Both the position numbers and the translations under genes were made by a program. Below, one piece after another: positions 10,951 to 43,395 of a DNA stretch of 64,000 nucleotides (its first letter is position 1; each line of letters opens with the position of its first letter). Source of the stretch: Rhizophagus irregularis. Taxonomy: Eukaryota. The DNA lies in contig NC_089434.1 in the NCBI RefSeq assembly GCF_026210795.1, forward strand, positions 5,580,001 to 5,644,000, given 5' to 3'. The notes beneath the pieces were generated by a model, which was not told the DNA's origin, searched no databases, and saw nothing but the letters and a program-made list of their open reading frames with translations.

Positions 10951-11537
10951 AAATACTCAAACCACAACATATTGTAAAAAAAATATGAAAAATACGCGTA
11001 TATCCTATTTTCATACCTTGCTTAACAGCTCCACTATTTATTTAAAAAATGGCTTTTTTCTCTTTTGTATGTGGTTAAGTGGGTACATTTTTCCTTTCTT
11101 TTATTCTTTTCTTTCGTATGTGAGTGGTGGGTACATTTTCTTTTCTTTATTCTTTTTTTATTCTTGCTTTTCGTATGTGGGTGTTTTACTATGTTGAATA
11201 TATAAACTAAAGTGTCCCAAAGTATTGTTAATATTGTAAAAAGATAATTAAAGTATACTTTAAAAAGAGAAAAGAAGAGATGAACAAAATACCGTAAAGT
11301 GTTAATATAAAAGACAAAAGAAAAGTGTATTTTTGAAAATAAACAAAAAAAATCTCATTAATAAACGCGAATTTTAGCTATTTTTAGATATCACATGCAT
11401 GTAATTAAAGTGATTTTAATTGGTTAATTTTAATTTATTATTACATCATGCATATGATTTTATTGGTTAATTTTAACCAAAATTTTATACGATACAAATT
11501 AAATAATTATTTTATTATATTTATATAATTAATATAA

Positions 11538-15119: not shown

Positions 15120-15369
15120 CTTTATAACAATTACAATTTAAATTAATTTAAATTTAACTAGAATTTTATTAATTCAATTAGAACTTTAAATTTATTAAGC
15201 GTGTTAGCAAAAAAAAAAAAAAAATGCAATTGCCAATTAAGTAATCACTTCGGTTAAATTAATGCCGATTTGGCTATTAATGGATACACAAAATTTAGGG
15301 TCAATTATACTGTATATGGTTAATGACAATTGGTATGACAAATAATATTATCGAATAATGTCATTTATT

Positions 15370-15650
15370 GAATAAAATAATAAGTATATAATAAAATAAA
15401 ATAAAACATAATAATAAAATAAAATATAACATAATAATAAAATAAAATAAAATATAATAATAAAATAAAATAAAACATAATAATAAAATAAAATAAAACA
15501 TAATAATAAAATAAAATAAAACATAATAATAAAATAAAATAAAACATAATAATAAAATACAATAAAACATAATAATAAAATAAAATAAAACATAATAATA
15601 AAATAAAATAAAACATATAATAAAATAAAATAAAAAATAAAATGAAATAA
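15370..15650. repeat. 23-bp AT-rich minisatellite, ~10 copies
   Basis: CATAATAATAAAATAAAATAAAA in tandem; explains the spurious F/I/L/Y-rich ORFs here. Confidence 0.9.
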
Positions 15651-15655
15651 AAATA

Positions 15656-16270
15656 TTAATGACGTCGGTGACGATAAGATCGAGAATGAGAGCGCTCGCG
15701 CTCTCGGTAGTAGGGAGATCGAGAACGAGAGCGCCCGCGCTCTCGGTGGTGGTAGAGGGATCGGGAGCGAGAGCACCTAGAGCGCCTGTGCTCTCTATAC
15801 TCGTATGTCCTACGATCTACCCTATTTCTCCGGGAGGACCGGACTAATGCTTAAAACAAAGCAATTATTAATATAAATGCAATGAATTAATGAAAAAATC
15901 AGTTAAATAATAAATACTTACACTCAACTCTCCAGAACTCGTCCGAGAGTTCTTGGTGGAACCTCTCGTCGTGCAAAGACGGGGTACGAGTAGGGTAATC
16001 ATCAGGATTTCTATTGATTAGCCTCTCTAGATTCTCGTACCCCGCCTTTAGTGAATTCCACTTCTCTCTGCATTGTTTTCTAGTTGGCCTGAATGTGTGG
16101 TTATTTCGTATATTACGAGCAATTCCACGCCATAATTGTTTTTGATCATGTAACCTCATTGTGGTGAATAAGGGCTGATAGGCCCGACGACGCTGAATTA
16201 AGGTCAAAGCAGCGTCATCGGGCCATTGAATGTATACTGAAAGATTTGCGTTTAAGTTTAATGCTGCCAT
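15656..16270 (-). CDS. Myb/SANT-like (trihelix-type) DNA-binding protein with RS-rich tail, transposon-borne
   Basis: WPDDAALTLI..LWRGIA..TRKQCREKWNSLKAGY; donor GTAAGT at 15921; downstream frame RRSRCSRSRS..RSRSRSP..RHRRH* ends 15656. Joining the two needs a one-base indel. Confidence 0.7.
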
Positions 16271-16338
16271 TATTAAATATTATTAGTTTGATGGGGAAAA
16301 TGTCAAGAAAAGGCTCTATATTTATAATAAATTTATTA

Positions 16339-16745
16339 TGATTTCTTTGAGTTTATTTTTACGATCTTGTCTAAATTTTTTAGTTCTAATGCAATCCTTA
16401 ATTAATTTATTTAACATTGAATACACACATAATTTTTTTTTGATTTCTTTGAGTTTATTTTTACGATCTTGTCTAAATTTTTTAGTTCTAATGCAATCAT
16501 CCTTAATTAATTTATTTAACATTGAATACACACATAATTTTTTTTTGATTTCTTTGAGTTTATTTTTACGATCTTGTCTAGTTCTAATGCAATCATCTTT
16601 AATTAATTTATTTAACATTGAATACACACATATTTTTTTTTGATTTCTTTGAGTTTATTTTTATGATCTTGTCTAAATTTTTTAGTTCTAATGCAATCAT
16701 CTTTAATTAATTTATTTAACATTGAATACACACATAATTTTTTGA
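16339..16745. repeat. ~102-bp tandem repeat, 4 copies, upstream of the Myb/SANT gene
   Basis: TGATTTCTTTGAGTTTATTTTTACGATCTTGTCTA.. starts at 16339, 16441, 16546, 16641. Confidence 0.9.
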
Positions 16746-18046
16746 TTTATTAATTTATTTTAAAAATATAGTTACAGTAATACTGCATCACGGCGTTAAT
16801 TAATATATATAAATAAAAATAAATAAACAAATTCTATTAATAAAAAGTGAGTTAAAAATGTTATTTATAATTATACATTAAAAAAAGCAATAAAGAAGAC
16901 GAAAGTAATCTGCAAATTATATTTAAGGTAAAAGAAAATGTAATATTTTAAACCACGCATGTCCTTCCTTGATTATATTTCATATTACACTGCGATGATA
17001 TATTACAATTATACTGAATTTTAAGCTAACCTTAATCTACACCATAAGGAACTTAATTCGATCTTAATTTACTCCGTTTTAGAATATTACCGAACAATTA
17101 GACAAATGATTAGTTGCACATGACTTGCATTATTTGTATAGTTGATACTTTATATACCGATATTTGATTACACCAATATGTATTAAAACTCTTTCCTACA
17201 GTATAAAATATCAATATATCGGTATTTTTCAAATATCGTTGTAAGTTGACTACTGTAGATCCCATCTATCTATTTAAAAAATTCTTTTATGTAATCAATC
17301 CAGGGGCTTACACTAAATAAGGCTTAGATATGGCTTAGTTAGATAGGATCATCACATGGTTCAGTTTAAAAATAATCGACCTTTTTTATTGATTGGTTTT
17401 TTTCTGATCATATTTTATATTTTATCGTCAAGAGTATAATTATTTAAAAATTTAATTTTTCTTGCATGTCATCGTATCACACATAAAAATGGAAATTCAA
17501 AACGTAATATTCCATTAATTTCTTCTCACTCCTTTTTCTTCTACCGATCATTTTTCTTCTCACCCCTTTCCATTATTTTTCTTCTCATTCCACGTATAGC
17601 CTGAAAATATAATAAAATTTGGAACCGTAAAATCGATTTGAGGTAATCTTCCATATAAAAAAAAATGTCACTGAATGAAATTCGATATTGTAATAATTTA
17701 TTTATATAAACTAAATTTAATTTCTGATCCTCTAGAAATCATAGTTTTTTTCCATCTTTCAACATTTTCAACTGATCCCGCATTCCCCTCAATTTATACG
17801 GTACACAACGATATTGAGATCCTGCATACTTTCCAATTACGTTCTATAATTAAAATTACAGTAACCAAGATCTCATTTATATCGTGACAACCTCGTTTTA
17901 TATCCCATATTTGATCAAGGGGTTATATCGACAATCTCGCTCTTTTCGATCAAGAGATCTCATTTATATCATGACAATCTTGCGAGAAGTTTACTTCACT
18001 TTTTTTCTCGTTCTCTCATTTTCTCTTGTTCTCTCATTACGATATT

Positions 18047-19246
18047 ATGACTAAACGTAATAATAAAGAAATAGAAATCAAAACAGGTATATATGTAACT
18101 CTTCCGTAAAAGTTTTGCTTATATGTAAGAATAATAACCGAAATATGTATAATAGGATCGAAAAAAAATCAAAGGACCTTACCGAGAAAGAGGAGAGAAA
18201 TAAATATTGAAGAAACTAATCAATTATTATTAGGTAAATATTAATTTATATAGGCTTTAGCTCTTTAATATTATTCTATTAATTTTTAATTGAAATAATT
18301 GAAATAATATATTACATACAGATATGAATACCAGGCAAAAACATAACGAAAGTGAAAAGGAAGTAATAGTAGAAGAGGATGTAAGGGATAAAAGTGAAGA
18401 AGAAGAGGAGGAAGAAGAAGAAGAAGATGATGATGATAACGACAAGTTAGGCGCGGCTAAAACAATTCCAGATCCGTTTCAGTTTTGTACCAAATTAGAC
18501 ATATGTAACTGGCTTGTAAAAAATCCAGAAATCTTACGATTAGCGAATGAGATGAACGAATCATCTTATGTTGTTAGTTCAAAGAATACTGAAGTTAGTA
18601 TTAATACAATATGATAATATTTATTATGTCTAAATCTCAAATAACGTATCTCAATATTTTAGGATAAAATACGACTATGGGATGAGTCGGTAAAGTGCTT
18701 ATTTTTACGAGTGAGGAATCCGAGTAGTGAAGCACTCGACAATTTGGTTGTGAAAATTTTTCGGTTTAAAATTTACACTAGCGAAGCTAGAGGATATCTA
18801 GATAAAACTCGTAAGTCTTTAACAGACTTCAGGAATAAATTCAACCAAAATATTCTAAATTTAGTGAGGGAATACAAAGAAATCAGAAAGAGCAGGTATT
18901 TGTTTATTTTATTGTTTTATAGTCAACAAAATAGTGCTATTTGTATAATTATTAATTAATTAATTATAGGGGTACGACTGGAAATCTTTCCCAAAAAGAA
19001 ATTAAAGATTACGTTGACAAAAACGTGGTGCAGAAACTTCTAAACCGTCAACTCGCAGCTGTCAATATTTTGGAATTGACAAATAATGGAGGCATGGATA
19101 CGTTAGTTGAGTTTGTTAAGGAAGCCGTCTGCGTTTCTTGAGACGGTAAAAACTTACCTGGTATAAAGGAGTTGGATACCATGACTAAAAATATAATTAT
19201 CCCTTCCCGAAGTGGAAGTGATATAGTAAATACCCTAAACAAGTAA
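18047..19246 (+). pseudogene. Multi-exon gene of unknown function with acidic tract, inside the CMC element
   Basis: ATG at 18047, at least 5 GT-AG exons (MTKRNNKEIEIK.., E/D tract, TKLDICNWLVKNPEIL, LWDESVKCLFLRVRNPS, ..IIIPSRSG); one in-frame TGA at about 19139; 3' end uncertain. Confidence 0.7.
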
Positions 19247-21199
19247 GTTATTTTATTTATTTCGCACATCACGCCTTTGATAATAATATATTAATAAAAT
19301 TAAATTATAGATTTAGGTGCGTTCTTATAAAATTATATGACGAAGAAGAATCATTAATAAATGATTTTATAAAATTTTAATAAAAAAATAAAATTGAGTT
19401 TTATTGAGTATTTCTTTTTAGTTTATTTAATTATATTCTTTTAATGGTATAGACTTTAATAATAATTAGCTTCAATCGAAAAATCACAAAAAGTTTTAAA
19501 AGTTTTGAATATCTGTTGAGATTCAATCATATTTGAATTTCTTTAACTTGTTGTGTTATTACCATTAAATAATCAATTATCTATATAAACTGTGTAAAGT
19601 TAATTTGGCTCTATTTTGATAATATCCACCTATAAAGAACTCATCCGTGCATTACCTAAACAATTATTGGTTGATCAAGTTCGTATAATACCAAATTTAT
19701 AAAATTGTCTGATTAAATGATCGCGTAATTAAATGATTGCGTATATTAAATGATCACGTATAAGACCTATTAATTCCTAAAAAGTCAATTCAACCACCAT
19801 TTTATTTAACCGCTATTTATTTGTACGTTTTTTTTTTTGAAAAAAAAAAAACTTTCTTTCTGAAAAGTAGAGTCTTCCTCCTATACCGTTTGCCGTCGTG
19901 CATAGTGTGTTATAGGAAAAGGCGGACTTGTTTGATTGATTATATGGGCATAAGCTTATGTTATATAGGCGTAAAACTTATATAATCAGTTTGATAACGC
20001 AACGAAAATCCTTTAATCAAGGGTTAAAATAGGCATGATGGGATATTCTCATATATCATGAGCTCTGTCTGTTCGAAGTGTCGTTTTATATATAATTAAG
20101 TAGGCTTAAGTCGTAAGTAACTTTTTTATAACATTGATTATTGGAGAATTAAGTGGCAAAAATAATTTTTAGTTTGTAAAACTTTAACTCCATACCAACT
20201 TGTGTGTGTTTGGGCGTTAATTTATTCCCTAACCCTTAGACCCACTCGTGGGTTAGGTAGGTTGCTTTGCACTTCTTGCAGCCTATCTTCTAATGGGTTT
20301 TAGGCCCACGTTTGCCCATTTAAAATTTATTAAACAGGATATCATCCGTCTAAACACATTGCAACGTTTGTTGATGAAGCTATGGTTGTCTAATAAAAGT
20401 TCGCTTTGCCTGGCAATTTATAGTGGATTCAATGGATCAAATTACAAACAACAATAATTTAGTCATATGAGAATTTCAGGCCAAAGAATAAGGGTGCATT
20501 GTCAAAGTTGAGAATATATTTGTATTTTTTTTTTTAAAGCCGTCATTCTCATGAACTTTTTCATTGTATCCCTAAGTTCAATGATTTTGGTAATGATGAA
20601 ACTGCAGTTGTTTATAGGGGTTTCCCGCCAAACTTCTGGGGTGAATTTATGTCTGGTATTTTCGAATATACTTATCCTTTTTGCAATAGAGTCGTAGCGA
20701 GTCTTCTTAAAGCGTACCTGTGACTATACTTCTCCGCTAATTAATTATGTCATATTTCGGCGAACGGACCAATTCACTATTTATTATAAAATTACTATGA
20801 ATTAATTACGTCTGTCAAAATAAATTTAATTAGTATTTTGTCATTTTGACGAAAAGTATACCTGTGACACCCCATCCAACTTGGGCAGTGTCGCTGAATC
20901 TAAAGCAAGGTACCCAGTTAATCCTCAACTTTGGGTTGATGAGTTATGATTCTGGAGTATTAAGGCATAATGTTTTGACTTACATCACCAATTTAACTCA
21001 TAATTCTAATTTATTGAATTAGTTTATTATAGATTTATTGATATTTTTTTTATCTGTTATATAATATTTAAACTAATGTATACTTTATCTGTAATTAAAA
21101 TTGTTATTGTAATAAATAACCGGTAACTTAAATCTATTGAAATTAACTTTTAAATTAGATTACAAATTATTAAAATATTATAAAATTGAATTTAACGAT

Positions 21200-22150
21200 A
21201 TTTGATTGATTTGATATTTTTATAGATAATATCATTTTGATATTATTTTGATACTGAATTAATATTAAAATAATATTATATTGATATTGCATTTATTAAA
21301 AAAAAATCATTATTGTTATAACAATATCAAAATGATATCGTTTCGTTATTTGTCAATATCGATTAGATAATTATAAAGTGATATCTTTACAATATCATAT
21401 TGATATTGAATTAATGTTAGAACGATATCATATTAATATCGTATTTACTTTCTATTTTTCATTATTGTTATAACAATATCGAAATGATATCGATTTGATG
21501 TTTCGTCAATATCGTTATGATGTCGATTAGATAATTATAAAGTGATATCTTTACGATATCATATTGATATTGAATTAATGTTGGAATGATATCATATTAA
21601 TATCGTATTAACTTTCTATTTTTCATTATTGTTATAACAATATCGAAATGATATCGATTTGATGTTTCGTCAATATCGTTATGATGTCGATTAGATAATT
21701 ATAAAGTGATATCTTTACGATATCATATTGACATTAAATTAATGTTGGAACGATATCATATTAATATCGTATTTACTTTCTATTTTTCATTATTGTTATA
21801 ACAATATCGAAATATCGATATGATATCGATTTGATGTTTCGTCAATATCGTTATGATGTCGATTAGATAATTATAAAGTGATATCTTTACGATATCATAT
21901 TGATATTGAATTAATGTTGGAACGATATCATATTAATATCGTATTTACTTCCCATTTTTCAAAAAATTCATTATTGTTATAACAATATCGAAATGATATC
22001 GATCTGATATTTTTTCAAACAAATATCTTTACGATATCATTTCGATATATTGAATTAATATTGAAATGATATCATTGCGATATCATAATGATATCATTTG
22101 CAAATCGATATCGCCACGATATTTATTTAACATCATTATTATATCAATTC
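21200..22150. repeat. Right subterminal tandem array, ~164-bp unit, 4-5 copies
   Basis: TCATTATTGTTATAACAATATC starts at 21307, 21459, 21623, 21787, 21968; built from GATATC-like motifs shared with the left array. Confidence 0.9.
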
Positions 22151-22513
22151 GGTATTGTTTAAAAATTCAAGGTTTCTGTAAAGAATTTACAATATTGCCT
22201 TTTTAATAAATGGAAAATATCAGAATTTTTAAAATTAATTTAAATAAACAAAGAAAAAGCATTTATTTTCTTGTTCTAAAATAGCAAAATACTATAATTA
22301 TCAAAAAAAATTTTATCTCTACTTATTACCATAAACTTTAACTAATTGAAGGTTTTTAAATAGTTGTAAAGTGTAAAATTGTAAGTTTAAGTTCTCATTC
22401 AAAATCTTTATCCATTCATGATACATTATTAAATTCATTTAAAAAAAAAATTCCATAAGTTTTAATTAAATTTTAGATAACAGCACTTAAATATATTAAA
22501 GAATACTTTAAAT

Positions 22514-26189: not shown

Positions 26190-28583
26190 TCTCTCACGAT
26201 CACGTTATCTCAAAATTTTTCGTTTTTTTGGAATTATCTTTATTTATAGAACCTTGATTTATCATGTGCAATCTAAATTAGGGACGTTGATTTACTAACC
26301 AATTAAAATAAATGCGCGTATTTCTAACTCTCATGAGTAAGCATTTTTGAAATCATGACTAATCATGAATAGAAGATATATAAATATATCATCTATGACA
26401 CGAATCAAAATAAAATTGACAAGAGGCAGAATTTTTAATTTTTTTAAAAGAAGTGAAATAAAGATTTATAGAATTATATATGTCACTTATAATGATTAAA
26501 AATTTTTCAAAACTTTAAAAAAATTAAAAGTTTACAACTCTAATCTGTAACTATATTAAACTACTAATTAGATTTTTAAGAAAGATTAAAATAAAAAGAT
26601 TATTAGTTGTGATTGCTGTGATTAACCTCAATTTAAACCATATAAATGCAATTTTATTAGTCAAAATTTTCATTCCTAAAAGATCTTTTGTGCAAGAAGA
26701 ACTTCAAATCATTCCTTTTGACACAGAATTACCACCTTAATGGGTACTTACGAGTTAAAATAGTCTTCTGCCTCCTCATCTAATTGTTCTTCCTGACTTT
26801 GGCTAATTTATAGTATAACTTGTATAGATCCATGATCGCATTAAGAATTCTTATAATTCTTTAATGCCAATCCAAGTTATTGTTAAATCATTAAAATTTA
26901 TTATATATATGTAAGAATAATATTAGTTAAAATAGCCAAATTGTACTTTTTTTTTATTAAATATATTTAATTAAATTCACAATACTTTTACATACTATTC
27001 TATATGTAATATAATTAAATCTTAATTTTATTGGGTTTCAAAAAATTTGAAATATAGATTTTTAGTACTATAGTATTTTTTTAATAATTATCTTTATACT
27101 ACTATTTTATATTTTATATTAAATTTTTTTAGCAAGAAATTGGATTTGAAAATTTAATTAATATTTTTCTATAAATAATAGCTGATAATAAAATAATTTA
27201 TTATTTTAAATAAAACTATCATAGTAAAATTATAAAAATAAATACCTTTTTTTGCAATCATATAATTAATAAAATTGATAGAAGTACTATTTATTTTTAT
27301 AACCTTTATAATAATCTTTTTTTTATGTATCTAAAAAATATACTTTATTTTTTTAAAAAATAGTTACACTAAAAAAAAATATTTCTATAAAAATAAGTGT
27401 AAAATTACCATTTCTTTAAATAAATGCAAAAGTTTTTCTTTTGTACTTTTGTTTTAAAGCTAAAGTCTAAAGTTTATTTTCTATAAAACCGTTTATTATA
27501 AAATAAATATTATAATAAAAAATATGGTATTGGTAATGGTAATACTAATAAGAAACTTTGTATATAAATTATAATAAATGATAAATAGTCTTTTATTTTA
27601 ACTTAGAAGTATTTGTACTTATTTATATTTGTAATTTTTTTTTACTTTTGTTAATAAATGTGCAGTATATTCAAAAAAAAAATACTAATAAGAAATATAA
27701 TTTTTATATTTTTACTATTTTTGATTTTTAGAAGTACTTATAAAATATTTATAAGGTACTTATTTTTAATTTTTATAAATACTATTGCAAATCAACAAAA
27801 ATACTTATTTTCAAAGGATGCTTATTTTTACAATTTTATGATAATTAACTAGTAAATTTAGGTATTACTTTAGATTTTCAGGTTTAATATTTTAAATTAA
27901 TTAGTAATTTCCATTTTAAATTAATTAAATAAGAATTTTTAAATTTTTTCTTAATATTACTCTTAAGTAAATAATAATAATATATGACAGTTTATAAAAG
28001 AATATAAAAGTTAGAAAATATAATTCAACCCAGTTTAATTACTTTGATATTTACTTTTAAAATGGATAGAATTTAATTTATTACTTTTAATAAAATTTAC
28101 CAGAATTATAAGGTAAAATTTATATAAGAAAATTTTAAAAATCCTACTATATATAAATCACTGGTCAAAAACCAATATATCAGGTAGCAGATATGTATCA
28201 GATATGTACCCGATATGTGTAGTATTAATGCAGAAAATCGGGTACCTGATATGTAGACATATGTGTAAATATATATATCATATACATATCGGGTACCGAT
28301 ACGTATATTTATATATATAAACATGTATACGATATATATATTTACACATATCTTACACATATCGGGTACCCGATTTTCTGCATTAATACTACACATATTG
28401 GGTACATATCTGATACATATCTGCTACCCGATATATTGGTTTTTGACTAGTAGTAGCAACTCTCTCCTGAATTTTTCAAAAACGAAATTTTCACTAAAAA
28501 TATTTTTTATTATTTTTAAAAAATAATACAAACTACTAATAAAATTTTATATTTTATATATTCCCAACTCGAAGCCCTCTACT

Positions 28584-30703
28584 ATGTCTGGTAACTATGC
28601 CAAGAGAGGCCGTGGAGGTCATAACCCTAACAGTAGGAAAGCTTCCCGTCAAGAACGAAAAAATAATAACTCCGATAACTCAAGCTCCGATGGTGAAAAC
28701 ACTGTCCAGCAGAAACGTAATCGTACGATTACCGAAAATTCTATGGAAGAAGACTACGTTGCCGATGACCAGACGGCTGACGTTGGAGTAGATGGATTTT
28801 CCTCTTCTCCTCAACAAAATATCTCTGGCGAAAATACTTTGACCTCCTCCCCGAAAAAATCTGCTGCGCCAACTGCGCCCAGTCACGTCCGCGTCTTCTG
28901 GAAACGTGGACGCGTCCATGCATGCACCTTTAAACAAAGACTTGCAACAACCCCCTAACGCGTCGCCCAATCTGGATACCAATGGCGCTCCAGATGACGA
29001 TCATACTTCAGATCCAGCGCGACCCTCGCCATAACCAGAGAAGATTTTCAGGCTGCGGCTGCACAGATGCTGCCCCCTGAATCTCTTAAGAAATTCCCTA
29101 CCAACAAAGCCCTTGTGAGGTGTTAATAATCTTTTTAGAAACTGCAGTCGTTTACTGGAAAAGCACGTATGACTGGTTCAGTGAAGCCAAACGCTCCGTT
29201 ATCAGCCATACAGCTGAAGACGCGATCTGCGTTGGTTCCACCCTCCTGAGACGGCTTAATCTTTCGTGCACGTGACCCTCGCCAACTCCGATCAATGAAG
29301 ATCTCCGGGCTATCCAAGTTACCGATATCCCTTTCTTCATTAAAAAAGACAACCTCATGGCTTATTTTAAGAAATTTGGTAATATCACCTCTTGCCGCCT
29401 TTTCTCCAGGCCTAATGCCAAAGTTCAGCAAGCCCGCATTGTTTATGATCACGCCGATTCTATTGCTCGTTTTACCGACCAATGGGCTGTGTACTGTTTC
29501 TCCACCTGCTCCAGTTACTCATGTGTTCAATATTCTGTGGATCAAAAGGCTGCGCGCCGTCAATACGTTGCCACCCTCACCCAACTTCCCCCAATGTTAA
29601 GGATATCAATTTGGCTCCCTTACCCTTTTCTCGTAGCCTTGGCGCTAAAGCTGTCCCAATGTGCCGCTTTCTCTAAACTCTTCTGAGCCCAAAGATGGGG
29701 GCTTTATGTCACCTTGATTCCCAAGAAACCATGGATGCTGCTATGGAACAGACTGTCAGCTTCCAAGGCAAAGTGCTTTTCTGGTCCTCCCCAGATAATT
29801 ACTAACAAACTTTGTCACAGATGTGGCAAATTAGGTTGTGCTCCAAATTTTTGCCCACTCAAACAAACCAGAGGTGAAGTCGCACTCGCGGCGCCCCGTT
29901 GCAAAACTTAAAGAACGATTTAATGTTAATCAACCTCATCGCTCCAATTCTAGCGTCGCCAATCGCACGTTCTCGCTCTCGATCTCGCTCCAAATCTAAA
30001 GATCGATCCGCTTCCAATTCTGGACGAGCCAATAACGATTTTGCCCACGACCACTTACTTAATAATGATAATAATCATAACAAACCCCCTCCCAGTACCT
30101 CTCATCGTGCCCGCCATAATAGCAAAGAACGATCGGTCTCCTTTTCTTCCTCCTCTCGTTCTAAAGCACGTCCCTTACCTCGACAAACTCCTAACTCTGC
30201 ATTATCTCCTGATGACGCTAATAACATTTTAAACCTTTTGCGAGAATTACAATGTGAAGTTGCCGAACTTTCACAAACGCATCTCCGCTCTTGAACTTGC
30301 TGACCAACGGATGACTCGTATTGAATCGCACCTTGGCCTCGATCCACTTCCTGTGCCCAATGAACCCTGAACCGGACCTCATGCAAGAAGATGCCCCTGT
30401 AACTCATGTTCCGCTTAATATTCAGTCTTCCGCTAAATCTTCACGCCCCCCAAAAGCATTTTAACGCGACCTTCGCCTACATTCACTATTATTCCTGACA
30501 CATCACTTCCTTCTTCTCACCTTTCTCCAAATGCTCCTCCTTTTACCCCTATCTCCTCCACGCAAGAAGAAATTAATGATCTCAAAAATAGTAGAGTCGT
30601 TATTGAAAGTAAATTGGACCAACTTACTGGTCATATCAAACAATTCATTAGCTCCATTGGTGGTGCTCCCCTAGAACAAGCTGATTCAGCTTCTTCTATT
30701 TAA
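28584..30703 (+). pseudogene. LINE ORF1 (RRM-like, Zn-knuckle-like, RS-rich, coiled coil), multiply frameshifted
   Basis: Pieces YFKKFGNITSCRLF..QQARIVYD (RRM-like), CHRCGKLGCAPNFC, RSRSRSRSKS, ILNLLRELQCEVAEL; TAA at 30701-30703. Confidence 0.8.
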
Positions 30704-30753
30704 TTTTCTTCTTCAAATCTTATCTTCCCGACTGTTTTTATCATTGTGTTTTA

Positions 30754-33700
30754 ATGTCGAACAATAATTTTAATTATGACACCTTTGTACGAAACCCTCC
30801 CAACCCCAATAATGTTACTGAACTTTTTTCACATGAATCATTATTTTCTTCTCCTAGTAACACTTCTCCTATCCCCAATTCATTTAATATCTCCTCTTTT
30901 AATGTCAATGGCCTTAAAATGCATGGTCAGACTAAATTAGAAGAGATTTCTACCTTCTTTTCTCTAAAACATATTTCCTTTGGTGGTATTGTTGATACTC
31001 ATATCCACCCTAAACAAATGAAGTTTTTATCCAAACGACTTTCTAATTATACTGTGTTTTCTTCGAATTTGGATACTTCTAAACAAATTCTCTCTTCTGG
31101 TGGTGTTTCCCTATTTATAGAAAATTCTCTTGCATCACATGTACAAGACTTTAAATCCCATTCTTCACGACTGCTTTCTGTTGATTTATATTTCAAAGGC
31201 AATGTTAAATTGCGTATATTTGTTATTTATATCCCTCCCCCTGCTGAAAGTGTTCTGCGCACCGACACTATTGATTTGCTTATTCAACAACTTATCCTTA
31301 CTAAACAAGCTGGTTTTTATCATGCTGTTTGTGGCGATTTTAATATGCATTTAGATAAATATTATCCTATTTATTTTAATCAACCTCAAATTGCTTCAAA
31401 ACATATACACCGATTACTTTTTCATCTCCTTTCCCATGGATATGAAGATTTTACACCCATTAATCTTTCCGATTCTTTAGGTACCTTTCAACGCAATGAC
31501 CACATTACTCGTGTTGATTATGTATGGTCCTGCCCTCTTCTCAAAGGATTTGCTCTTACTGCTTGTATTTTTAATGCTCAAGACATCTGCACATCTGATC
31601 ACAACCCTGTCATCACATATTATGATATGTCTTTACTTTTTGCCTCTACCAAATTGGCTCGCGCTCGTCAACTTAAGCGCCAAACCCGTCGCATTTTCAA
31701 ATTTGATTCTGTAACTGATACTCAATGGACGGAATTTGCTGACAAAGCTGATGCCTTATGTGATGTTTCACCATCAACCTTTTCCTCCTGGCATATCAAT
31801 CAGATGTGCGAATACCTTCAATCGCGAATCCTTAAATCCGCCAACGCTACTTTACCTTCTTCTACTGTTGGCAATAATTATACTCCTAAGGTTCCTAAAG
31901 ATCTGGAAATTTTAACTCAAAATTATCGGTTTTTAAATCGCCTAATGCATTCGATACGTCTATTGCGCAAATATCCTTTAACTTATTCTGCTGCTCATGA
32001 ACATAAGTGGTCTATACATTTGCATCGACTTCAGAACATTCTTCAATTATATAAGAAAATTTTTACTTTCATTCCTACTCTGCCCTTTTCTCTTTCATCA
32101 TGTCGACAAGATAATTTCAAGTCACTTCTTGATGATTTATCCAATATTTCAAAATCCTTACGGGGATTTCATTTACTACAAGAAAAAGAATTCCAAGACT
32201 CCTCCATCCGTGCTCACTTGGACGATAGGAATAATAATTTTGAAACTGACCTTTCCTCCTTTATTGATTCAGCGCTTTCTCGCACCCGTCGCCGTATCAC
32301 TTTGGACCGTGTCTTCATCGACCATCCTTCTCAACCTCAGTTGTTGACTGCTCCTAAGGACATAGATGATGCTGTTGTTAACCATTTCCAAAACTTTGTA
32401 CCTATAAAGTCCACTCCTCCTGTATCTATCGATACACTACCCGATAGATGGTCTTCTGCCTATCAACCTATGGATGATGTGTCCTCCTCCATCTATGATT
32501 CTTTAATGAATCCCCCCTACCCTTGATGAATGGTTATCCACCGTTTCTTCCACTCCTAACGGTAAAGCCTCTGGTCCTTCCATGATTACTTATGAAATGC
32601 TCAAACATCTCGGATCTCGTACCTCGGCTTTACTTCTCATTTTGATTCAAGCATGTCTTTCCAAAGCTGATATTCCTGATTTATGGCGACAAGCAATGGT
32701 TTTTCCTATCCCCAAACCTCACGAATGGAAGTGTCAATTAAAAAATACTCGCCCTATTACCCTACTTGAAGTGATTAGGAAATCTCTTGTCAAACTTTTT
32801 TATAATCGCCTTTCTACCATTATGGCTTCACATGATGTTCTTAAAGGTGGTAACTTCGCTGGTCTTCCTGGAGGTTCTTGCCGCGACCCTATTATTACTT
32901 TAGAATCTATTATCCATGATGCTGATATCAACAAAAACCCACTTTGGATTCTTTCCCAAGATATTTCTAAAGCTTTTGATTCTGTTGATTTAACGATGTT
33001 ACGTTTCGCTTTAGAACGTATACGTCTTCCAGCCTCCGCTGTTATGTTTATTCTTTCACTTTTTATGAAACGCACTAATCGCGTTTTCACTGCTCATGGA
33101 TCTACGCCTGCCTATAGGGTTCGCATTGGTATTGACCAAGGCGAAGTTATTTCTCCTCTTTTATGGGTCATTTATATTGATCCCTTACTTACTATTCTGA
33201 AGAATGAGATGATGGACCCTTATGTTCTTTCTACACCGTCTTTAATTGATTCTTCAAGTCCTTCTCTTGATTTGAAGATTAATAATTTAGTATTTATGGA
33301 TGACTCTACTCTTATTTCCTCGTCAAAAGCTGGCATGGAATTTATGTTATCCATTACTGAAGAATTTTATCAGATCAATAACACTTCTGCCAATCATAAC
33401 AAATATGTGTTAATCACTAATTCGTTGCCTTTGACTCCGAATTCCACTTTATCCCCTATCACTTTTAATTTGGATTTATCCTTTTTAAATAGTGTTCCTT
33501 CCATTACTATTACCCCAATTTCCATGACAACTTCTTTTCGTTTTTTAGGTGTTTGGTTTAACATTAAGAGCTCCCGTGATTTTGTCAAGAAGCAACTCAA
33601 ACGCGAATGCTGCTCCTTTGCTGCGACCATCCGACCTGCAAAGCTCTCTTCCAAACAAGTTGTGTATTTACATAATGCCGTCCTTATACCGAAACTTGAT

Positions 33701-36382
33701 TATCGGATGCAAGTTACTCACTTATCTGAATCTGATTGTCACCTAATAACGAGAAGTATACGATCTGTCGTAAAGCATAAAGCAAACTTTTCTCGTTCTT
33801 TACCTAATTCCATTTTATTTTTGTCTCATGCCTTGGGCTTGATTAATTTGTTTGCTCATCAACGACAATGTCATATTACTAATTTATTTTTAATGGCTAA
33901 CTCTTCTTCTGTTTTTATTCAATCTCTTTTTATTTATAGATTGAGTTTAATTCAATATAATTTTTTGATTCCTATTTCTCCCCTTTTAATTAAAGATTGG
34001 TCTATATGGTCTTCTCTATTTTCTTTCAAAAAAGATTATATCGCATGCACTATTGCTCTCTTGTCTTCTACTCCTTTTCGGTTGCTTCACACTCAATTAT
34101 CGAAGCTTCCAAATTTATCCTTGATAGATGGATGCGTTCCTTTATTTGAATGCATGACGCCTATAGCCTTTAAAGCTTATTTTCCCATCCTGCGTAAACG
34201 ACAACTGTTTTATTTATCTCAGCTTGTTACTCCTCAAGGAACTCATTTAATTTCCTGGAAGGCTTACTATGATAATTTGGTTGGACGACGTGGCCCTCGG
34301 CCGTATCCCTTATTGGTATAAAGATATCCAACAAGCTACCACTGTTCGACTCCAATAATCGTTTGCTGGATCAGTTTATTACTCTGCATACGAATGCTTC
34401 TTCATTTTATGAATTGGAACCTTGTCTATCCTCTCCTCCCACTACAAAAAATTGGATTGTCACGTTAGACGATCTTGGTTCTCCCATCTTCGGCAAACAA
34501 CTTTTGGTCCAAACAAGTCGTGGTACTTGTTCCATTGTCCATTGGGTCTCTCCTGATTGTGAATCTTCGCCTGGAGATCTTATTCGACTTTCTCTTCGCC
34601 CCTGGCTGCGCTGCCCATATTCCCCTACCTCCTTCCAAAAAACGGAATGCTGATTTAACCCTATGTACAACTACGGTCTCTCTACGCCATTCGCTTATTT
34701 TGCCCACTACCAATGAACGAATTAGACGTACTACCTCTGAAGTGACTTCACCTTTTACCTGGGCTGATATAGAAGATGGTGTCCGTCTTTATTATAGTAG
34801 ATTGGATTTTGATTCCGATTCTTATTCTGCAGATACCGCTATAGCCCCTAATACTCCTGTCGCTATTGAATCCTCGGCTGCTGCTGTCTTTGCAAATTCC
34901 CCGCTGGTCGTTTATCGGATTCGCGTTATACCTTTTTCGCTGATGGGTCTCTTATTAATTTAGGCACTCCCGATGTCTCTATGGGCTGGTCTTGGATGCA
35001 AATAGTCCCTGATGCAGGTTTTCCTAACTCTATCGCCACTTACGCTCACGGCCTCATACGTGATAATCCCTCTTCTTCTCGTGCTGAGGCTGCTGCTATT
35101 TATGCAGTTTTAACTATTTCTCCACGTGACTCAGAAGTTACTATTTATACTGACTCGCAAACTGCCATTGATGGTCTCCGAAGTTGTTTTTCCTCTATTT
35201 ATTCAAATAGTCGTTTGTACTATAAAACTACAAATTTTGAACTTTGGGCTATTATCGAGCGAACCATCCTCTCAAAAAATTTGACTGTCCTTCCCGTCAA
35301 AGTTAAAGCTCATTCTGGCAATTACTTAAACGATTTTGCTGACTCCTTGGCCAATACTGCTCATACCGCGTCAACCAGTATTTTGATCTCTGGAATGGAC
35401 CTGGCCTCTGCCCATGATTTTGTCTTAATTTATGACAATGATGTTGTTTGTGAATTTAATCCACGACACCTCCTAAAACAATATTATCAAACGCAGTTAA
35501 TGCGCGATTTGTTAAATTTAACGCGATTTCACTTTATTACTTTATTATCAATTAATATAGATTATATTGTTGACTGGGAACTTACTTGGTTCACCTTAAA
35601 TTTTAAGCCCTCTCATGATGCATCTTTTACTCCTGAGCACGCTTCAAGACACCTAACCTTTAAATTCAAACTTTTCTTGGATGATTTGCCTACACTGGAA
35701 AAGCTTAAACGGACCCGACCAGACTTATACATGGACGAATTAACTTGCCGTTCTTGTATCGACCGCATGGAAGACCTGATGCACCTTTTTATGTGCAAAA
35801 GACGACGTCTGCCTATGCAGCAAATTCTCCAATCTTATCAAAATCATTTGATTTCCAAACTTCTGGAAGCGAGTAATTTGGTTGATACTGATCCTACTCC
35901 ATTTATAGCTAAACTTACTTCTCTTTCATGCTGGTCCTTTTCTTCTACAAATTGGTCCTCCTTCGCCCTTATCCGTGGTTGCTTACCCAAACTTTTCATC
36001 GACTTATTTGTTGATTTATCCATTCCGAGAACTTCTGCGATTAAAGTTATCGCTGCTATTCATAACAATTTTGTCCAGAAATTCAGAAGACGAATCTGGA
36101 ATCCGCGTTCTTTATGAGAAAAGTAGATGGGAAAATGCGATGAACATTACCTATAAGTTGAAAACTACTCCGAAGCCATCCAATCTGCCTTTGTCGATGT
36201 ACATACCTTACTCATCTTTACCACCTCCGACCCTACACGATTCACGTGACTCCGGAACCGATTGGTTGAAGAACTCGATGAAATATGGTTTGCCTTGGTT
36301 TAATCACTTTTCGGGTTTTATGGGTCGTCTAACGGTGCTACTTAATAACAGCTTTTGCAGGATGGAGTGTCGATTTTTATAG
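30754..36382 (+). pseudogene. LINE ORF2: AP endonuclease, reverse transcriptase, RNase H, CCHC; several frameshifts
   Basis: APE: SFNVNGL, GDFN, RVDYVW, SDHNPV. RT: RPITLLE, QDISKAFDSV, GIDQGEVISPLL, FMDD, FLGVW. RNase H: ADGS, RAEAAA, YTDSQ, KVKAHSG..NDFAD. Zn finger CRSC..HLFMC. Confidence 0.95.
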
Positions 36383-36653
36383 TGGGCGCGCTATTCGTTA
36401 TTTTGTTAGCATAGTTGCTTCTACTTTGGTTGGAATATATCAAGGGGGAAGATCTGGGGAAATTTAGTGTAATGCGATTTTTCTTTTTTTAGATTAATTT
36501 TTTACTTTATTTTTTCTTAGGAGACTATATAGCTTTGTTTTTAGTTAGTTTTATTTTTATATCTTTCTTTTTATTTTTGTAAATTGTTAAAGTTCGAATA
36601 AATTTAATAAAGATAAAGGCTACTATGCCACGTTTGCCTGGTTTTTGACTAGT

Positions 36654-37810
36654 TTATCAAACGCAGTTAATGTGTGATTTGTTAAATTTAACGCGATTTC
36701 ACTTTACTTCTTTATTGTCATCTAATATAGATTATATTGTTGACTGAGAACTTACTTGGTTTACTTTAAATTTCAAGCCCTCTCATGATGCATCCTTTAC
36801 TCCTGACCACGCATCAAGACACTTAACCTTTAAATTCAAATTTTTCTTGGATGATTTGCCTACATTGGAAAAGCTTAAACGGACTCGACCAGATTTATAC
36901 ATGGACGAATTAACTTGCCGTTCTTGTATCGACCGCATGGAAGACCTGATGCACCTTTTTATGTGCAAAAATCGTCGTCTGCCTATGCAACAGATTCTTC
37001 AATTTTATCAACATCATTTGATTTCTAAACTTCTGGAAGCCAGAAACATGGCTGACATTGACCCTACTTTACTTATTGCTAAACTTACTTCTCTTTCATG
37101 CTGGTCCTTTTCTTCTACAAATTGGTCCTCCTACGCACTTGTCCGTAGTTGTTTGCCTAAACTCTTTATTGACTTATTTGTCGATTTATCCATCCCAAGG
37201 AACTCTACGATTAAGGTTATTGCTGCTATTCACAACAATTTTGTTCAAAAATTCAGATGACGAATTTGGAATCCGTGTTCTTATGATAAAAGTAGATGGG
37301 AAAATGCGATGAATATTACCTACAAGTTGAAAACTACTCCGATGCCTTCTAATTTGCCTTTGTCAACGTACATACCTTACTCATCTTTACCACCTCCGAC
37401 CCTACACGATTCACGTGACTCCAGAACCGATTGGTTGAAGAACTTGATGAAATATGGTTTGCCTTGGTTTAATCACTTTTCGGGTTTTATGGATCATCTA
37501 ACGGTGCTACTTAATAACAGCTTTTGCAGGATGGAGTGTCAATTTTTATAGTGGGCGCGCTATTCGTTATTTTGTTAGCATAGTTGCTTCTACTTTGGTT
37601 GGAATATACTGGCAAGGGGGAAGATTCAAGGGGAAATTTATTGTAATGCGATTTTTCTTTTTTAGATTAATTTTTTACTTTATTTTTTCTTAGGAGACTA
37701 TATAGCTTTGTTTTTAGTTAGTTTTATTTTTATATTTTTCTTTTTATTCTTGTAAATTGTAAAGTTCGAATAAATTTAATAAAGATAAAGGCTACTATGC
37801 CATGTTTGCC
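36654..37810 (+). mobile_element. Second, 5'-truncated copy of the same LINE family
   Basis: Homologous to 35484-36638 with many substitutions (about 8 in the first 90 nt) and in-frame TGA stops (~36745, 37258); flanked by the same 15-mer at 36639-36653 and 37811-37825. Confidence 0.93.
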
Positions 37811-38160
37811 TGGTTTTTGACTAGTGAATAAATTACATATAAAAAAGGAAATATTACAGATTTTTTTCTTTTTCAATCAATTAATCAATAGAATTGCTAG
37901 TAAAATTACTAATAAATTTTAATAATTATTAAATTTATATTTAAAGGAAATATTATATTATAAAGAATAAAAATTCTAGTTTTAAAATTGTTATTTTAAC
38001 ATAAAATAAATTAATTTTATTTTATTATAAAAATATATTATTTTTTCAATTAATATAACAATATTATATTGGTATTCATATTGAAATATTTTTTGTTATT
38101 TTTTATTCTTTAAAAGATTATTATTAATTATAATTTTATATATATAATTTTTAAAATATA

Positions 38161-38571
38161 TTTATCGCAATTTTCAAATTACTGAAAATAGTTTAAATAG
38201 GAAAATAAAATAAAAAAAAATGATTTTTTTCAAAAACCCATAAAAACAGTAAATTTTATTGTATTTTCGGAAGGAAAAGGTGCGATTATAACATGAAAAT
38301 CTTAATTTTAGGATGAAAAATCTAACTCTTAGGTAAGTTTACTTATAGAGAACTTTTTAGGTTACATACAATCTCAAAAGTCACTTATATGCAAACTTGC
38401 TGAAAATTTAAGTTTTCTGCTCTAAAATTAACATTTTCAGGTTATAATCGCACCTCCTCTATCTAAAAATGCAATAAAATTTACTGTTTTCGTGAGTTTT
38501 TGAAAAAAATCATTTTTTTTATTTTATTTTCCTATTCAAACTGTTTTCGGTAATTCAAAAATTGCAATAAA
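38161..38571. mobile_element. ~410-bp foldback (palindromic) element
   Basis: Arms of about 200 bp are imperfect reverse complements (AGGTGCGATTATAAC / GTTATAATCGCACCT; AAAACAGTAAATTTTATTG / CAATAAAATTTACTGTTTT); centre near 38365. Confidence 0.8.
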
Positions 38572-39242
38572 ATAAAAAATAATTTATAATATTAATATAT
38601 AATAATTTATATTTTTTTATTTAACTTTAATTTAAATTTATATTATATATGTTAGTATTAAAAAGTTGTATTATTATATTTACAAAAATATATATGTATA
38701 TATATAGTAAAATATAGTAAATAATAATTAGTAAAATTTTTTTTTTAGAAAATTTTATAAGTTTTTTTATTATTTTACTATTTTATTTATCTATAATATT
38801 AAGAGATTATATATATTTCATTAGAAAAAAATACTAAAAATATTGGAAGGCTGTAAAAACTAAGATTAAAAAATTAAATATATAATATAATTTATATTAA
38901 AAATTTTTCAATAAAAAAGTAAAAGTTTATTTTGTATATTTTTGAATAAGAAATTAATAAATAAGATAAAATTAATTTGAAAGAGTTTAGAAATAGTATT
39001 TATGATATTAAAATTCAAATTATATTTGAAATTAACTATTTTTTTTATTAAAAAATATTAATATTATTGAAAATAATATATTATCAAATAGTAAATTAAA
39101 TATAAATTTTACATATGGGCCGATTTGGCTCACTTCGGTTATGTCATCTATAAAATGATCAACTGCCGATCATTTACTAATTTATTAAATATCACATTTA
39201 TTTACATTATTTCTTTTTGAATAACTACGCGAAACTTCTAAA

Positions 39243-40075
39243 ATGACACAGTGTAATTTTCCTTGCTTTTTATGTTCTAAAATTTTTAATACAAGGAAAA
39301 AATTGCAAAATCATGAACGAAATGTACATAAAAATAATAAACTTATTTCACACCGTCATATACTTCATCAACCTTCTAATGAAACAATGTCATTTTATCG
39401 AGACGCAATAATAATTCGTTTAAAAAATAGTCTTGGATTTAACAGACATTCAGTTAGAAAAAAACATATAACAATTGACGCGTTTCCAGAGGATGTATTT
39501 GTGTCTTTATTTGAAAATGAAGATAATTTCAAATATATACCAAGCCAGCGAAAATATCAATGTATTTTGGAAGGAACAGTAGGTGAGGAACAATTGAAGA
39601 AAATATTTAAATATGACCAAATAATATTTCGTGAAAATATTAATACTTCAACTCGAGGGTATATATTATTTGAGAATAATGATGGTCAATATAAAGCAAT
39701 ATTTAATTGGAAACAAAAAGAATTAAAAGAAAATACAAGACATTTTTTGTCTGGAATTTTGACAATTAACTTTATTGCTGACTCTGGTGAATTCATAAAT
39801 GAGTAAGATTTATGAAAATTCTGTGTTATTAAAAGATATTTTTGTGTTAACTTTATTTTATTAATTTTAGTCAAGAAAATTATGTAGCGCCACTTCAACC
39901 ACTTCAACCGCCATCATCTAATGATGATCATATTTTACATATAATATATTCCAATCCACCTTATAACGCATCTAACAATAAACTTTCATCAAATAATAAA
40001 TCAACAACCTTTACCAAACCACAATATAGATATATTTTACCACGTCCCCCTTTATCAAATACAAATAATTCTTAA
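39243..40075 (+). CDS. C2H2 zinc-finger protein, 2 exons, transposon-borne
   Basis: CFLCSKIFNTRKKLQNHERNVH; intron GTAAG (39803) to TTTTAG (39870) gives an open exon 2 ending YRYILPRPPLSNTNNS*. Confidence 0.8.
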
Positions 40076-40213
40076 CAATTTCAATGTAATAAAATTATTG
40101 TTTTTGGTAATCAAATTTATTATTATTAATAACTTAACCTCATACATCACTTTCGCATCAATTATTAATAAAAACGTAATGGATTTTTAATAATAATAAA
40201 ATATAATTATTAA

Positions 40214-42851
40214 TTAGCTTTCCTTATTATTGACATCAATGTTTCTAGCGATAATCTTTTTAGGAGTATTGTTAATTAGGTAAAATAATTGGTGATTTTC
40301 AAAAGACATTATATTGTATACTACTGATTTTCCATCAGTTCCCCCACCCATAGTAGTACCTCCAAAAAATAAACAGACCTAGATTAAGAATATATATTAG
40401 TAATAAACATAAATTTTTTCAAATAAAAAAAATAATTATAATTTTTTAATACATGATTGTGATTTTTTTTTTCTATACTTGAAGTAGAAAAAGTTTGTAA
40501 AGAAAGGCCAATTTCTTTTAATTGACGCATAAATTGGGGTACATGTTTTGCAAAAACATGCATATATGGAGTAACATCATCTTTTCGATATAAATCAGGA
40601 ATTTGTGTACCACTATTCATGTGACCTTGAGTTGGACGATAAAACGTGCAGATCCAATTTTGAGTATCGATTTCAAATTGATCAATTTCTTGATCTGAAA
40701 GATATTCTTTGTGTAAAATTGTATATAATCGATAAAACTCTCGCCATAATTTTTCTATATCTTCTCCATGAATATCTGAAATAAATTGTGATACTGGAAA
40801 CTCTTTTAACGTTTTTTTTTATCTGGTCCCATTAGAGAAGTCCAATTCCAATTTTTTCCAGATTGAAAAAATTTAAAATGAACTTTAATATTTTTAAATG
40901 CTAATTCAACTGCTGGCTTAATTTGCTTTTGAAATTCCTTTTTTTTAATTAGATCAGCAAATAAGCACTCCATTAAGACATCTGAAATTCTTAAAAAAAG
41001 ATGTAATTCATCTGGTATATAATTTTTCTGATTAATTGCAGGAAATAAAGGAGATTTCCTTTCACCTAAATATTAAGTGTAGTAAATTAAGTTTAAAGTA
41101 TTGTAATTTAATTAATAAAAATAAATTAATATATCAAGTAAACTTACATCTTGTATTTTCTGTATTATTCCATATTTTATCCATATCCCATCGCAATGAT
41201 GCTTCACAATTGCAATACAAATAAAAATACTTTGAGTTTGGCGCATTTGTACCCATAATTATGTACATAAATTTCCAATCTCCACAGAAAAAGAGCTCAA
41301 CTGGCCAATTAACACCATCCTGATCGATAATTCCACTATTTTTCAAATCAAATAATTGATCTTGAAATAATTGGTCAACTTTTGCTAAATCTTTATAATT
41401 TTCATGACCAATATAAAGGCAAATACTGTAATTATATAAGAAACTAAATTAGTTAAAAAATTTATAGTAAAATCAATAGTAAGAATAGTTAAATTTTACC
41501 AATATTGATGATCAGGTTTTAAAACCTCTTTTTTTCGTTTAATAAACAGAATGTGATCATTACATGATTCTGACGTCTTCCCGCATTTCTGCCATCACCA
41601 CCTATTTTGATATAAAGAGTATCTCCTGGAAATATTACAGGATTTTGTCCTGCTTTCCAAATGGGTATTAATATTTTAAGTATATCTAAAATAGAACGAA
41701 ATGCACCATTTTCTATTTCATGATCATCTACTAAAATATCATTAACATTATTATTAATATTATTATCAATATTAGATTGATTATTAATTTCGTTATCTAT
41801 ATTAAAAATTCCTATATGAATTTGCATATTCATAAGTTCGTTCATTTCATTTCGACGATTAGCAACCAAATATTCACGAAAAAGAGTTGGAACAACTGCA
41901 GCTAAATTTCTATATCCATCACGACCTAAGACTGCTTCATCACAAACACGTACAATAGCATCAACTCTTGTTTGAATTGCAGAAGAATTATTTGGATTTT
42001 TGAATTTAATATAAGCCTGCTGGTCTTCTTTATAATCAAGTTCAATATAACATAAATGGACAATTGGTTCTCCAGATAAGTTTGTCAATTTATGTTTGAT
42101 AATTAGTTACATCAATGCTTTCTGCACATCTCTTCCGAAGCTATTCAGTCTTTTGTTTTGTTGTGATCGTGAAGAAATCTTTTCAAGTGGCCTTTTACGC
42201 CTATTATTGTCCTTTATTACAGGTTGTAAACCAATTTGTAAACGAAAATTATATAATGGTTCAATATCAAAACCAAATAAACAAGGACCAGAAAGTTTAG
42301 TTGATCGATTCTGATTGATTTTCTAATAAAATAATATAAAATTAATTTGTGTATAAAATAAAAATCATTATATTTCTTTTAATGTAAATATGAATTACAT
42401 ACCTGTAAAAACAAATTAGTAACTGCCGTAGAGGATTTTGTGCTACTAATATTCCAATCTACACGTCCTTCCTTCCAATTTATAGTATAGCATACTTTTG
42501 AATCTGTGATATATTTGGTTTCACACTTAAGACTCCATTCGAACAACTCTGTTTCAACAATGTAATCATTTGGTATCGGATATTGAAAAGTACTATTTTG
42601 GAATTTTTGAGTCAGTCTTAGTATGGAAGGATAATTCCCCACTGCAATAATATTGTAATATGAAATGTATAATCGACCATTTGATATATAACGCGCTTCA
42701 ATTCTTGAATTGTTTGGGTAGTCATGTATAAAAACGCGACTAGAAAAAGAGTCTAATAATTAAAAAAAAAAATTTTTAGTATTTTTATTTTTGCTAAAAA
42801 ATATATCTTAGAAAGCATATTACTTTCGTTTTCTGGTGCTATTTCTACCAT
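40214..42851 (-). pseudogene. RAG1-core/Transib-like (CMC-Transib group) DDE transposase, about 6 exons, with frameshifts
   Basis: KIGGDG (D1), FCGDWKF (D2), SKYFYLYC (decayed CxxC), PDELHLFLRI, WTSLMGPD, TPYMHVFAKHVP, FSTSSIEKKN (E), in the same order as RAG1 motifs; GT-AG introns; indels near 41520 and 40820-40870. Confidence 0.8.
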
Positions 42852-43395
42852 TTTGTTTGTAATTTAAAACTAAACAGTTTCGATATTGAACATTTCTAAA
42901 TATAATACTCACTGCCCAAACCCTTAAAACCAATTCCAAGACAATTCCCAACAGGTTTCGAAGTTGCAAAATCCAGTTTCGAAAGCATGCGTAGCTGGTG
43001 CGTAACCTTTAACAATTGGCTTAAATATGAAATCGGCATTAACGTCATTATGCATTATTCAAATTTGTCACAAATTTGATGTTTATTTTGATCTCATGTC
43101 GATCAAAAATTCATATTGTCACCAAAATTTATTTAGTGGTATGAGCCAAATCGGCCCATATGATAAATAATATATTAATATTATTTTTTGTAAAATAGTA
43201 AATTTTAATTTAAGTAAAAACTTTTAAGAATTGAATCTTTAATAATAACATAAATTAATTGTAATATATTTAAATGGATTTTAAATTAATTAGTTAAGTA
43301 TTATATACATCCAAATTAAATATCTTTAAAAATAAGCACTCTAGTTAAAATTATGAAAATTTTGGCTTATATTATATTATTTTTGGCTAATATTA

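Follow-up and report, generated by a model that had tools for sequence, protein, structure and literature searches.

Long interspersed nuclear elements (LINEs) that carry an apurinic/apyrimidinic endonuclease-like (APE) domain and insert at defined sequences have been described mainly from animals, and those known to target DNA transposons use internal sites. According to the available part of PMC4494074, the crocodilian elements Tx1-Mar, Tx1-9_AMi and SINEU-3 are APE-type elements without long terminal repeats (non-LTR elements) that prefer a DNA transposon, Tx1-Mar and SINEU-3 residing in Mariner-N4 and Tx1-9 in Harbingers; the same text gives animals as the hosts of the Tx1 clade. The accessible portion of PMC4640811 lists the R1 clade among the RNase H-bearing clades, and the Tx1 clade is not in that list. 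Here I describe a locus of the fungus Rhizophagus irregularis (NCBI RefSeq assembly GCF_026210795.1, contig NC_089434.1, positions 5,580,001 to 5,644,000 of the forward strand; this stretch of 64,000 nucleotides is the window, within which all positions are counted) where two copies of an RNase H-bearing LINE adjoin the right terminal inverted repeat (TIR) of a putative CACTA-type miniature inverted-repeat transposable element (MITE). Comparison with copies elsewhere suggests that this LINE subfamily targets the TIR, a reading that I consider probable.

Results

Copies of a transposon end flank two LINE copies

Scanning the window for the 15-mer TGGTTTTTGACTAGT gave exact matches at 28437, 36639 and 37811 and an inverted copy with one mismatch at 28160-28174; these four matches compare with 0.17 on average over 100 shuffles, and no shuffle gave four. 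The direct copies, which lie on the forward strand like every feature of the locus, alternate with LINE sequence in the order target, 8.2-kb LINE, target, 1.16-kb copy of the LINE 3' part, target. The first target copy (28437-28451) forms the 5' junction of a full-length LINE of a young lineage (copy 1, 28452-36638), which ends without a poly(A) tail. The second (36639-36653) separates copy 1 from a 5'-truncated LINE of another lineage (copy 2, 36654-37810), which contains in-frame stops and is likely the older insertion. The third, together with a following G (37811-37826), remakes the full 16-bp right TIR at the outer end.

The DNA that ends with the first target copy is a non-coding foldback MITE (28159-28451) with a CACTG left end and a right TIR that is short of its last G only. 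With the G found at 37826 the element measures 294 bp, and the AAT that precedes it (28156-28158) recurs as the right copy of the target duplication at 37827-37829. Its left TIR (28159-28174), which corresponds to the inverted match, has one mismatch to the target (inward CCAGT versus CTAGT) and no LINE in it. No other CACTR..YAGTG pair in the window combines matching 14-nt ends with a 3-bp duplication; the MITE's terminal arms are identical at 92 of 98 bases and its foldback has a z score of -24. CACTA/CMC transposons have CACTA or CACTG termini and a 3-bp target duplication, as does this MITE, and its CACTA label, which follows from these ends and this duplication, is a provisional one. In runs X3 and X5 the unique left-flank contigs stop at 28187 and 28188, some 30 nt into the MITE, which, in 31-mer graphs, suggests that, from the first base on, the MITE is multicopy. 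The window was found to contain no autonomous element that combines this TIR with a CMC transposase, long-pattern scans of prokaryote and viral collections gave no match to the TIR, as expected, and these scans together with the Pfam and TIR searches of the window found no matching transposase.

The sequence-only reading of this DNA had already placed the 15-mer at the three positions, recognized it as the right TIR of the MITE minus its last G, and located the missing G and the AAT at the outer end, all of which is borne out. It also had the LINE copies use identical cut positions; as a refinement, the duplication is 14-16 bp and not strictly 15, because the first T of the 15-mer could be the LINE's and one contig joint retains the G. 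Two public gene models of R. irregularis, P0144 and P0195 (WFLTS-LSNAVN), also contain the junction between the two LINE copies, and an assembly artefact at this point is therefore unlikely and was rejected.

The two copies come from different lineages

Copy 2 starts at the equivalent of position 35484 in copy 1. The two differ at 86 of 1152 aligned bases, and their C-terminal translations are 90.6% identical over 235 amino acids (aa). These translations were compared with 38 distinct gene-model sequences. Copy 1 shows 98-100% protein identity in the C-terminal part to eight distinct gene-model sequences on several contigs, while copy 2 groups with the upstream copy of P0001 and with P0012, P0121 and P0154 (Shimodaira-Hasegawa-like support 95). 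Since they fall into different genomic lineages, the two copies are, by sequence, not products of a local duplication but independent insertions from different source elements, as the sequence-only reading had supposed. Independent insertions at the same base, one mark of a sequence-specific LINE, are thus found for the two lineages in the window as well as at other loci. Copy 1 was likely inserted last, because copy 2 has in-frame stops and copy 1 belongs to the youngest group; copy 1 occupies the target duplicate that still has MITE DNA upstream.

The same target occurs at other loci

Evidence from other loci was drawn from 460 stored proteins, which are gene models, and from contig tables of the runs (depth was not taken as copy number). 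Six of the proteins read through the LINE 3' end, and five of these six, representing two of three loci, go on with WFLTS, the 15-mer in frame. One of the two loci is the middle junction of the window (P0144, P0195); at the other (P0001, P0124, P0125) the next copy is truncated in the reverse transcriptase (RT) region, at about 32741. Within the LINE subfamily the exact 15-mer is therefore present in all five read-through models. In run X3, at least three joints, among the 12 listed, lead from the target to LINE positions 28454, 33076 and about 34290. The truncation points adjoining the target thus vary by locus: 35484, about 32741, 33076, about 34290, and full length. One further model of the 460, P0150, situated on another contig, opens with an exon derived from the MITE family, which is spliced to a truncated LINE copy that belongs to a third lineage.

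In runs X15 and X3 the unique right-flank contigs have their starts at 37797 and 37798. Because unrelated flanks would give starts near 37781, the 30-mer that spans the LINE end, the target and the G is, by the logic of 31-mer graphs, likely to be shared with other copies. None of the 18 loose ends listed for runs X1, X3 and X5 lies at the LINE 3' end, a count that carries little weight. Tandem arrangement is frequent in the family, being seen in P0001, P0019, P0097, P0094, P0085 and P0090 besides the window junction.

Searches of other sequence collections added no further copy. A metagenome scan with a 16-nt pattern (21 of 64 parts) returned 119 loci, all attributable to chance and none with a BLAST match to the LINE or the MITE; long-pattern scans of viral and prokaryote collections gave no match to the LINE 3' end, and protein-based locus scans of viral contigs yielded no LINE relative. 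The translated LINE 3' end, used as a protein query, retrieved no short protein and four long ones, all known already.

Coding capacity of the full-length LINE

Copy 1 contains an open reading frame (ORF), ORF1 (28584-30703), with an RRM domain (evidence from P0131 and P0202) and a Cys knuckle, and a second, ORF2 (30754-36382), with APE (about 30868-31650), RT (about 32708-33556) and RNase H (about 34924-35361) domains and a C-terminal CCHC finger, the last identified by eye. The element has the attributes of an APE-type LINE: two ORFs with an APE endonuclease and a non-LTR RT, 5'-truncated copies, a constant 3' end and a target duplication. Both ORFs carry 1-nt frameshifts in the window; since four runs have many contigs with the other state there, the frameshifts are likely errors or private changes of this copy. 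The closest proteins are R. irregularis gene models, with identity of up to 99%, followed by R. clarus proteins at 57-78%. The fungal host and the RNase H-bearing APE LINE proposed earlier are both supported. Membership of the Tad1 clade is recognized by RT grouping with Tad1 and by a Tad1-type ORF1; Pfam reports RRM_1 only in the ORF1 described here.

Folding of the endonuclease from an alignment predicted an APE/ExoIII domain (pLDDT, the predicted local distance difference test score, 82.8) with the motifs GDFN, RVD and SDH; the single-sequence fold reached a pLDDT of 31. Foldseek with the endonuclease model did not tell L1-EN and cellular ExoIII apart, and matches in the ESM Atlas were to generic APE and RT clusters only. 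Against solved structures the family profile scored best with human L1 (109 bits), R2 being next (90-102 bits). Among the endonuclease matches in the PDB, human L1-EN scored 38-45 bits and two L1-EN loop-swap variants 41-52 bits; the best 60 PDB matches of the family profile included no chain named as an endonuclease of R1Bm or TRAS1. The RNase H has the residue set D-E-D-H-D, and the archaeal-type R is absent.

Points against TIR targeting, and the alternatives

Several observations weigh against targeting of the TIR. Seven contigs of run X15 depart from the LINE at its end, at 37811, and go on in different, mixed sequence (consensus agreement 0.6); this is the one loose end at the LINE 3' end among the 24 listed. 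At 85% likeness, these contigs may represent sister subfamilies with a common 3' end, or off-target copies. In the R. clarus model P0171 the same 3' end is followed by LNLNS and not by WFLTS. Gene models expose tandem junctions only and are spliced predictions, a biased sample that can mislead. The 5' junction with the MITE directly upstream was seen as DNA once only, in the window, and an empty allele of the locus is absent among the contig joints listed. Finally, nearly all close Rhizophagus models that were scanned have Asp (VDTH) in place of the putative metal-binding Glu of the endonuclease. Distant relatives read SETK in place of VDTH, at a position that I take to be that of the metal-binding Glu.

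A LINE with a loose preference, for a motif resembling T-N7-GACT or for the ends of foldback stems, would have many sites, the TIR being a hot spot that holds a minority of copies. In the consensus of the X15 loose end, T and GACT keep the register of the target and the remainder is different, a match noticed after the fact; sister elements have other spacers (LNLNS, ITYSS); and the MITE can form a long hairpin with the target site at its base. However, the read-through models of the subfamily agree on the exact 15-mer in five of five cases at two loci, and the left TIR, which lies at the same stem end and differs by one base, is empty (n = 1). I consider a loose preference rather unlikely.

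In a second alternative the LINE RNA carries the 15-mer as a transduced tail at its 3' end, and the element enters its own tails, the MITE having been merely the founder site. The lack of poly(A), the AATAAA just 5' of the target, the frequency of tandem arrangements in the family, and an X3 joint with a partial extra target before the LINE 5' start would all suit such a tail. By contrast, the outer junction restores the G of the MITE and the AAT exactly, the young copy is located at the MITE-side duplicate, and MITE sequence lies upstream of the third-lineage copy elsewhere (P0150). A transduced tail is thus very improbable.

Alternatively, a DNA transposase might nick its own transposon end with a staggered cut, and the LINE prime there without the help of its own endonuclease. 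This would agree with a top-strand cut at the transposon end or one base inside it (one joint retains the G) and with the Asp for Glu in the endonuclease. P elements cut with a stagger of 16-17 nt, which also speaks for this explanation; against it, we know of no such stagger for CACTA transposases, the APE domain is retained across the lineage, and the searches described above found no matching transposase. The chances of this explanation are slimmer still.

A single chance insertion followed by local tandem duplication, or by amplification of a MITE-LINE composite through DNA transposition, is hardly tenable: a duplicated 35484-36653 would produce this arrangement as well, and neither outer TIR of the composite is damaged, but truncation points beside the target vary between loci and the lineage comparison of the two copies largely refutes a local duplication, which was rejected.

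Sister subfamilies

A quick RT tree was built with 45 rows from 146 distinct RT regions, 10 intended rows having been dropped as duplicates or because their RT match was too short; it holds family members and unnamed relatives only. It contains at least four close R. irregularis subfamilies, one R. clarus group and one more distant clade. The close subfamilies share 66-80% protein identity, and the same 3' end is found in two species. Against 1.84 billion representatives, the search with the RT returned 283 matches below 1e-30, and RNase H accompanied RT in 16 of the 23 long RT matches scanned. On these sequence comparisons, the broad lineage combines an L1-like endonuclease with RNase H.

The sister subfamilies are likely to use sites of their own, located in other repeats. 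In P0171 the spacer LNLNS amounts to five codons that are not LINE-derived, because LRDE normally precedes TIDLL. In a sister subfamily of 75% identity, P0290 and P0224, on different contigs, both follow the same multicopy gene and the repeat-derived peptide ANNPITYSS and are truncated at about aa 420 and about aa 1296, some 880 residues apart; here again, a single site in a repeat has received two insertions. The gene that stands ahead of ANNPITYSS is presumably F-box-like, and Pfam assigns no family to P0291. P0025 and P0084 are truncated sister LINEs found after translated short-repeat DNA (units RVGFRR.. and PQFRN..), which suggests that they too follow repeat-rich elements. The spacers WFLTS, LNLNS and ITYSS all end in Ser, a residue that makes up about 7% of translated window DNA downstream of the locus. 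Such endings would fit ..YAGT|G CACTA ends in the sisters, a lead read from protein and not from codons.

Neighbouring elements

A MULE-type (Mutator-like) DNA transposon lies at 3873-7216, with inverted ends of about 100 nt that are 79% complementary and a MULE transposase domain between them. The region 9135-22155 has 73-bp and 164-bp repeat arrays and inverted outer ends about 12.8 kb apart; it encloses several minus-strand ORFs, none with a Pfam match, and is possibly one large DNA transposon with subterminal repeats. About 400 bp to the right of the locus there is a second foldback element (38203-38530) with 161-nt arms that are 78% complementary. Beyond it, a 4-kb element (39117-43157) with GGGCCGATTTGGCTCA inverted ends and an ATAT duplication holds a C2H2-finger ORF and a spliced minus-strand gene; I take its ends and duplication to resemble those of Sola2.

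Discussion

The locus is best explained by sequence-specific target-primed reverse transcription, likely at the right TIR of the MITE. ORF2p would nick the bottom strand, 16 nt inward from the end of the transposon, at 5'-CACTAGTCAAAAACCA^, and reverse transcription would be primed on the resulting 3'-OH. A few target bases read through onto the RNA may then pair with the primer and help priming; such pairing is likely because there is no poly(A) tail and the AATAAA signals lie 33-42 nt before the target. Two such hexamers (36597-36611), with starts 42 and 33 nt 5' of the target, could serve as a 3' end signal. Pairing of read-through target bases with the primer is ascribed to R2 and R1-type elements, in part by the available text of PMC4494074. 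The top strand would be cut after ACTAGT, one base from the transposon end, and sometimes after the G. Each event would duplicate the target, so that later copies form tandem stacks. At the present locus the truncated copy probably came first, followed by the young full-length copy, which would have entered the upstream duplicate that retained the MITE context. The outcome would be an outer 16-bp TIR and AAT remade around a 9.7-kb unit, with an inner MITE lacking its terminal G.

The LINE ends show some further features. In a read-through RNA the last base of the LINE and the target (36638-36651) can form a 6-bp wobble hairpin; folding of the whole LINE 3' region gave a z score of -2.3. The 5' junction of the full-length LINE (28452-28465) reads AGT AGT AGC, and in one X3 joint a partial extra target copy stands ahead of the same LINE 5' start. 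Together the junction and the joint suggest microhomology, or upstream target bases at the RNA 5' end.

The sequence-only reading had this LINE specialized on CACTA ends. That the same target recurs at other loci with different 5' truncation points supports the proposal in part; some 3' ends, however, enter other sequence, and sister subfamilies apparently have other targets. Specialization therefore holds best for this LINE subfamily and this TIR. A tentative extension, which may well prove wrong, is a radiation of Rhizophagus LINEs in which each subfamily is tuned to the TIR of a different CACTA family and the target is re-specified by the read-through bases of the RNA. In that case insertions would rebuild the outer TIR, and a LINE would either disable the transposon end or ride in a cut-and-paste unit.

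If the TIR is the target, this would represent a further origin of target specificity, in a fungal, RNase H-bearing lineage that lies outside Tx1 and strikes a CACTA element at its functional tip. It would also be a direct contest between two transposon classes, in which the MITE loses its terminal G, yet the full outer end is remade. Subfamilies with apparently different targets offer a natural series for deciding between the endonuclease loop and RNA-target pairing as the determinant of specificity, which also matters for retrotransposon-based gene insertion. The young lineage, whose copies are 98-100% identical, could supply insertion markers for R. irregularis strains.

The available parts of papers on Rhizophagus and Glomeromycotina transposons (PMC11075540, PMC8647823, PMC11952901) list LINE and CMC families and do not mention targeting of a TIR by a LINE. 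The target and LINE motifs were absent from the paper supplements searched and from the full-text library. Among the papers listed by literature searches none was on a TIR-targeting LINE, nor was a terminal-repeat target of a fungal RNase H LINE lineage found described, and the sequence-only reading likewise knew of no description of CACTA ends as a target; Repbase and the curated R. irregularis library may hold the family. LINEs that target DNA transposons are already known, and what was not found described is the position of the target in the terminal repeat.

Among the systems with which the locus can be compared, R1, SART and TRAS are likewise sequence-specific APE elements, and their targets are ribosomal DNA and telomere repeats. 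Proto1 and the L1-group elements with RNase H have the same APE-RT-RNase H-CCHC layout, and the RT and endonuclease described here are closest to human L1 structures. To my knowledge, no target specificity is known for Proto1. The RNase H differs in being D-E-D-H-D and not of the archaeal type with R, by the criterion given in the accessible portion of PMC4640811. Bacterial IS4321/IS5075 also target the terminal inverted repeat of another transposon, as stated in the title of Partridge and Hall 2003, cited in PMC11187229. They are, however, RNA-guided IS1111-family DEDD recombinases, with unrelated chemistry and from another domain of life.

The closest parallels are Tx1 elements. In Xenopus, the Tx1L site lies in internal repeats of Tx1D. 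Tx1L is also a sequence-specific APE LINE within a non-autonomous DNA transposon, but Tx1D is, according to the parts available of PMC4494074, PMC1950540 and PMC6719617, of the piggyBac type, unlike the CACTA-type MITE. The endonuclease hairpin loop, counted by eye, has about 7 residues here, compared with 11 in Tx1L and 9 in L1 in the available part of PMC1950540. Like the present LINE, the crocodilian elements form tandem copies, there around a 16-nt duplication, and their independence was argued from truncated copies; their sites are internal, at about 240 and about 830 of Mariner-N4 and about 300 bp into Harbingers (PMC4494074, in the part available). The Tx1 clade is characterized by animal hosts and is not listed among the RNase H-bearing clades; here the host is a fungus and RNase H is present. 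Unlike the crocodilian elements, the Rhizophagus copies sit at the terminal repeat proper, and they belong to a fungal LINE with RNase H.

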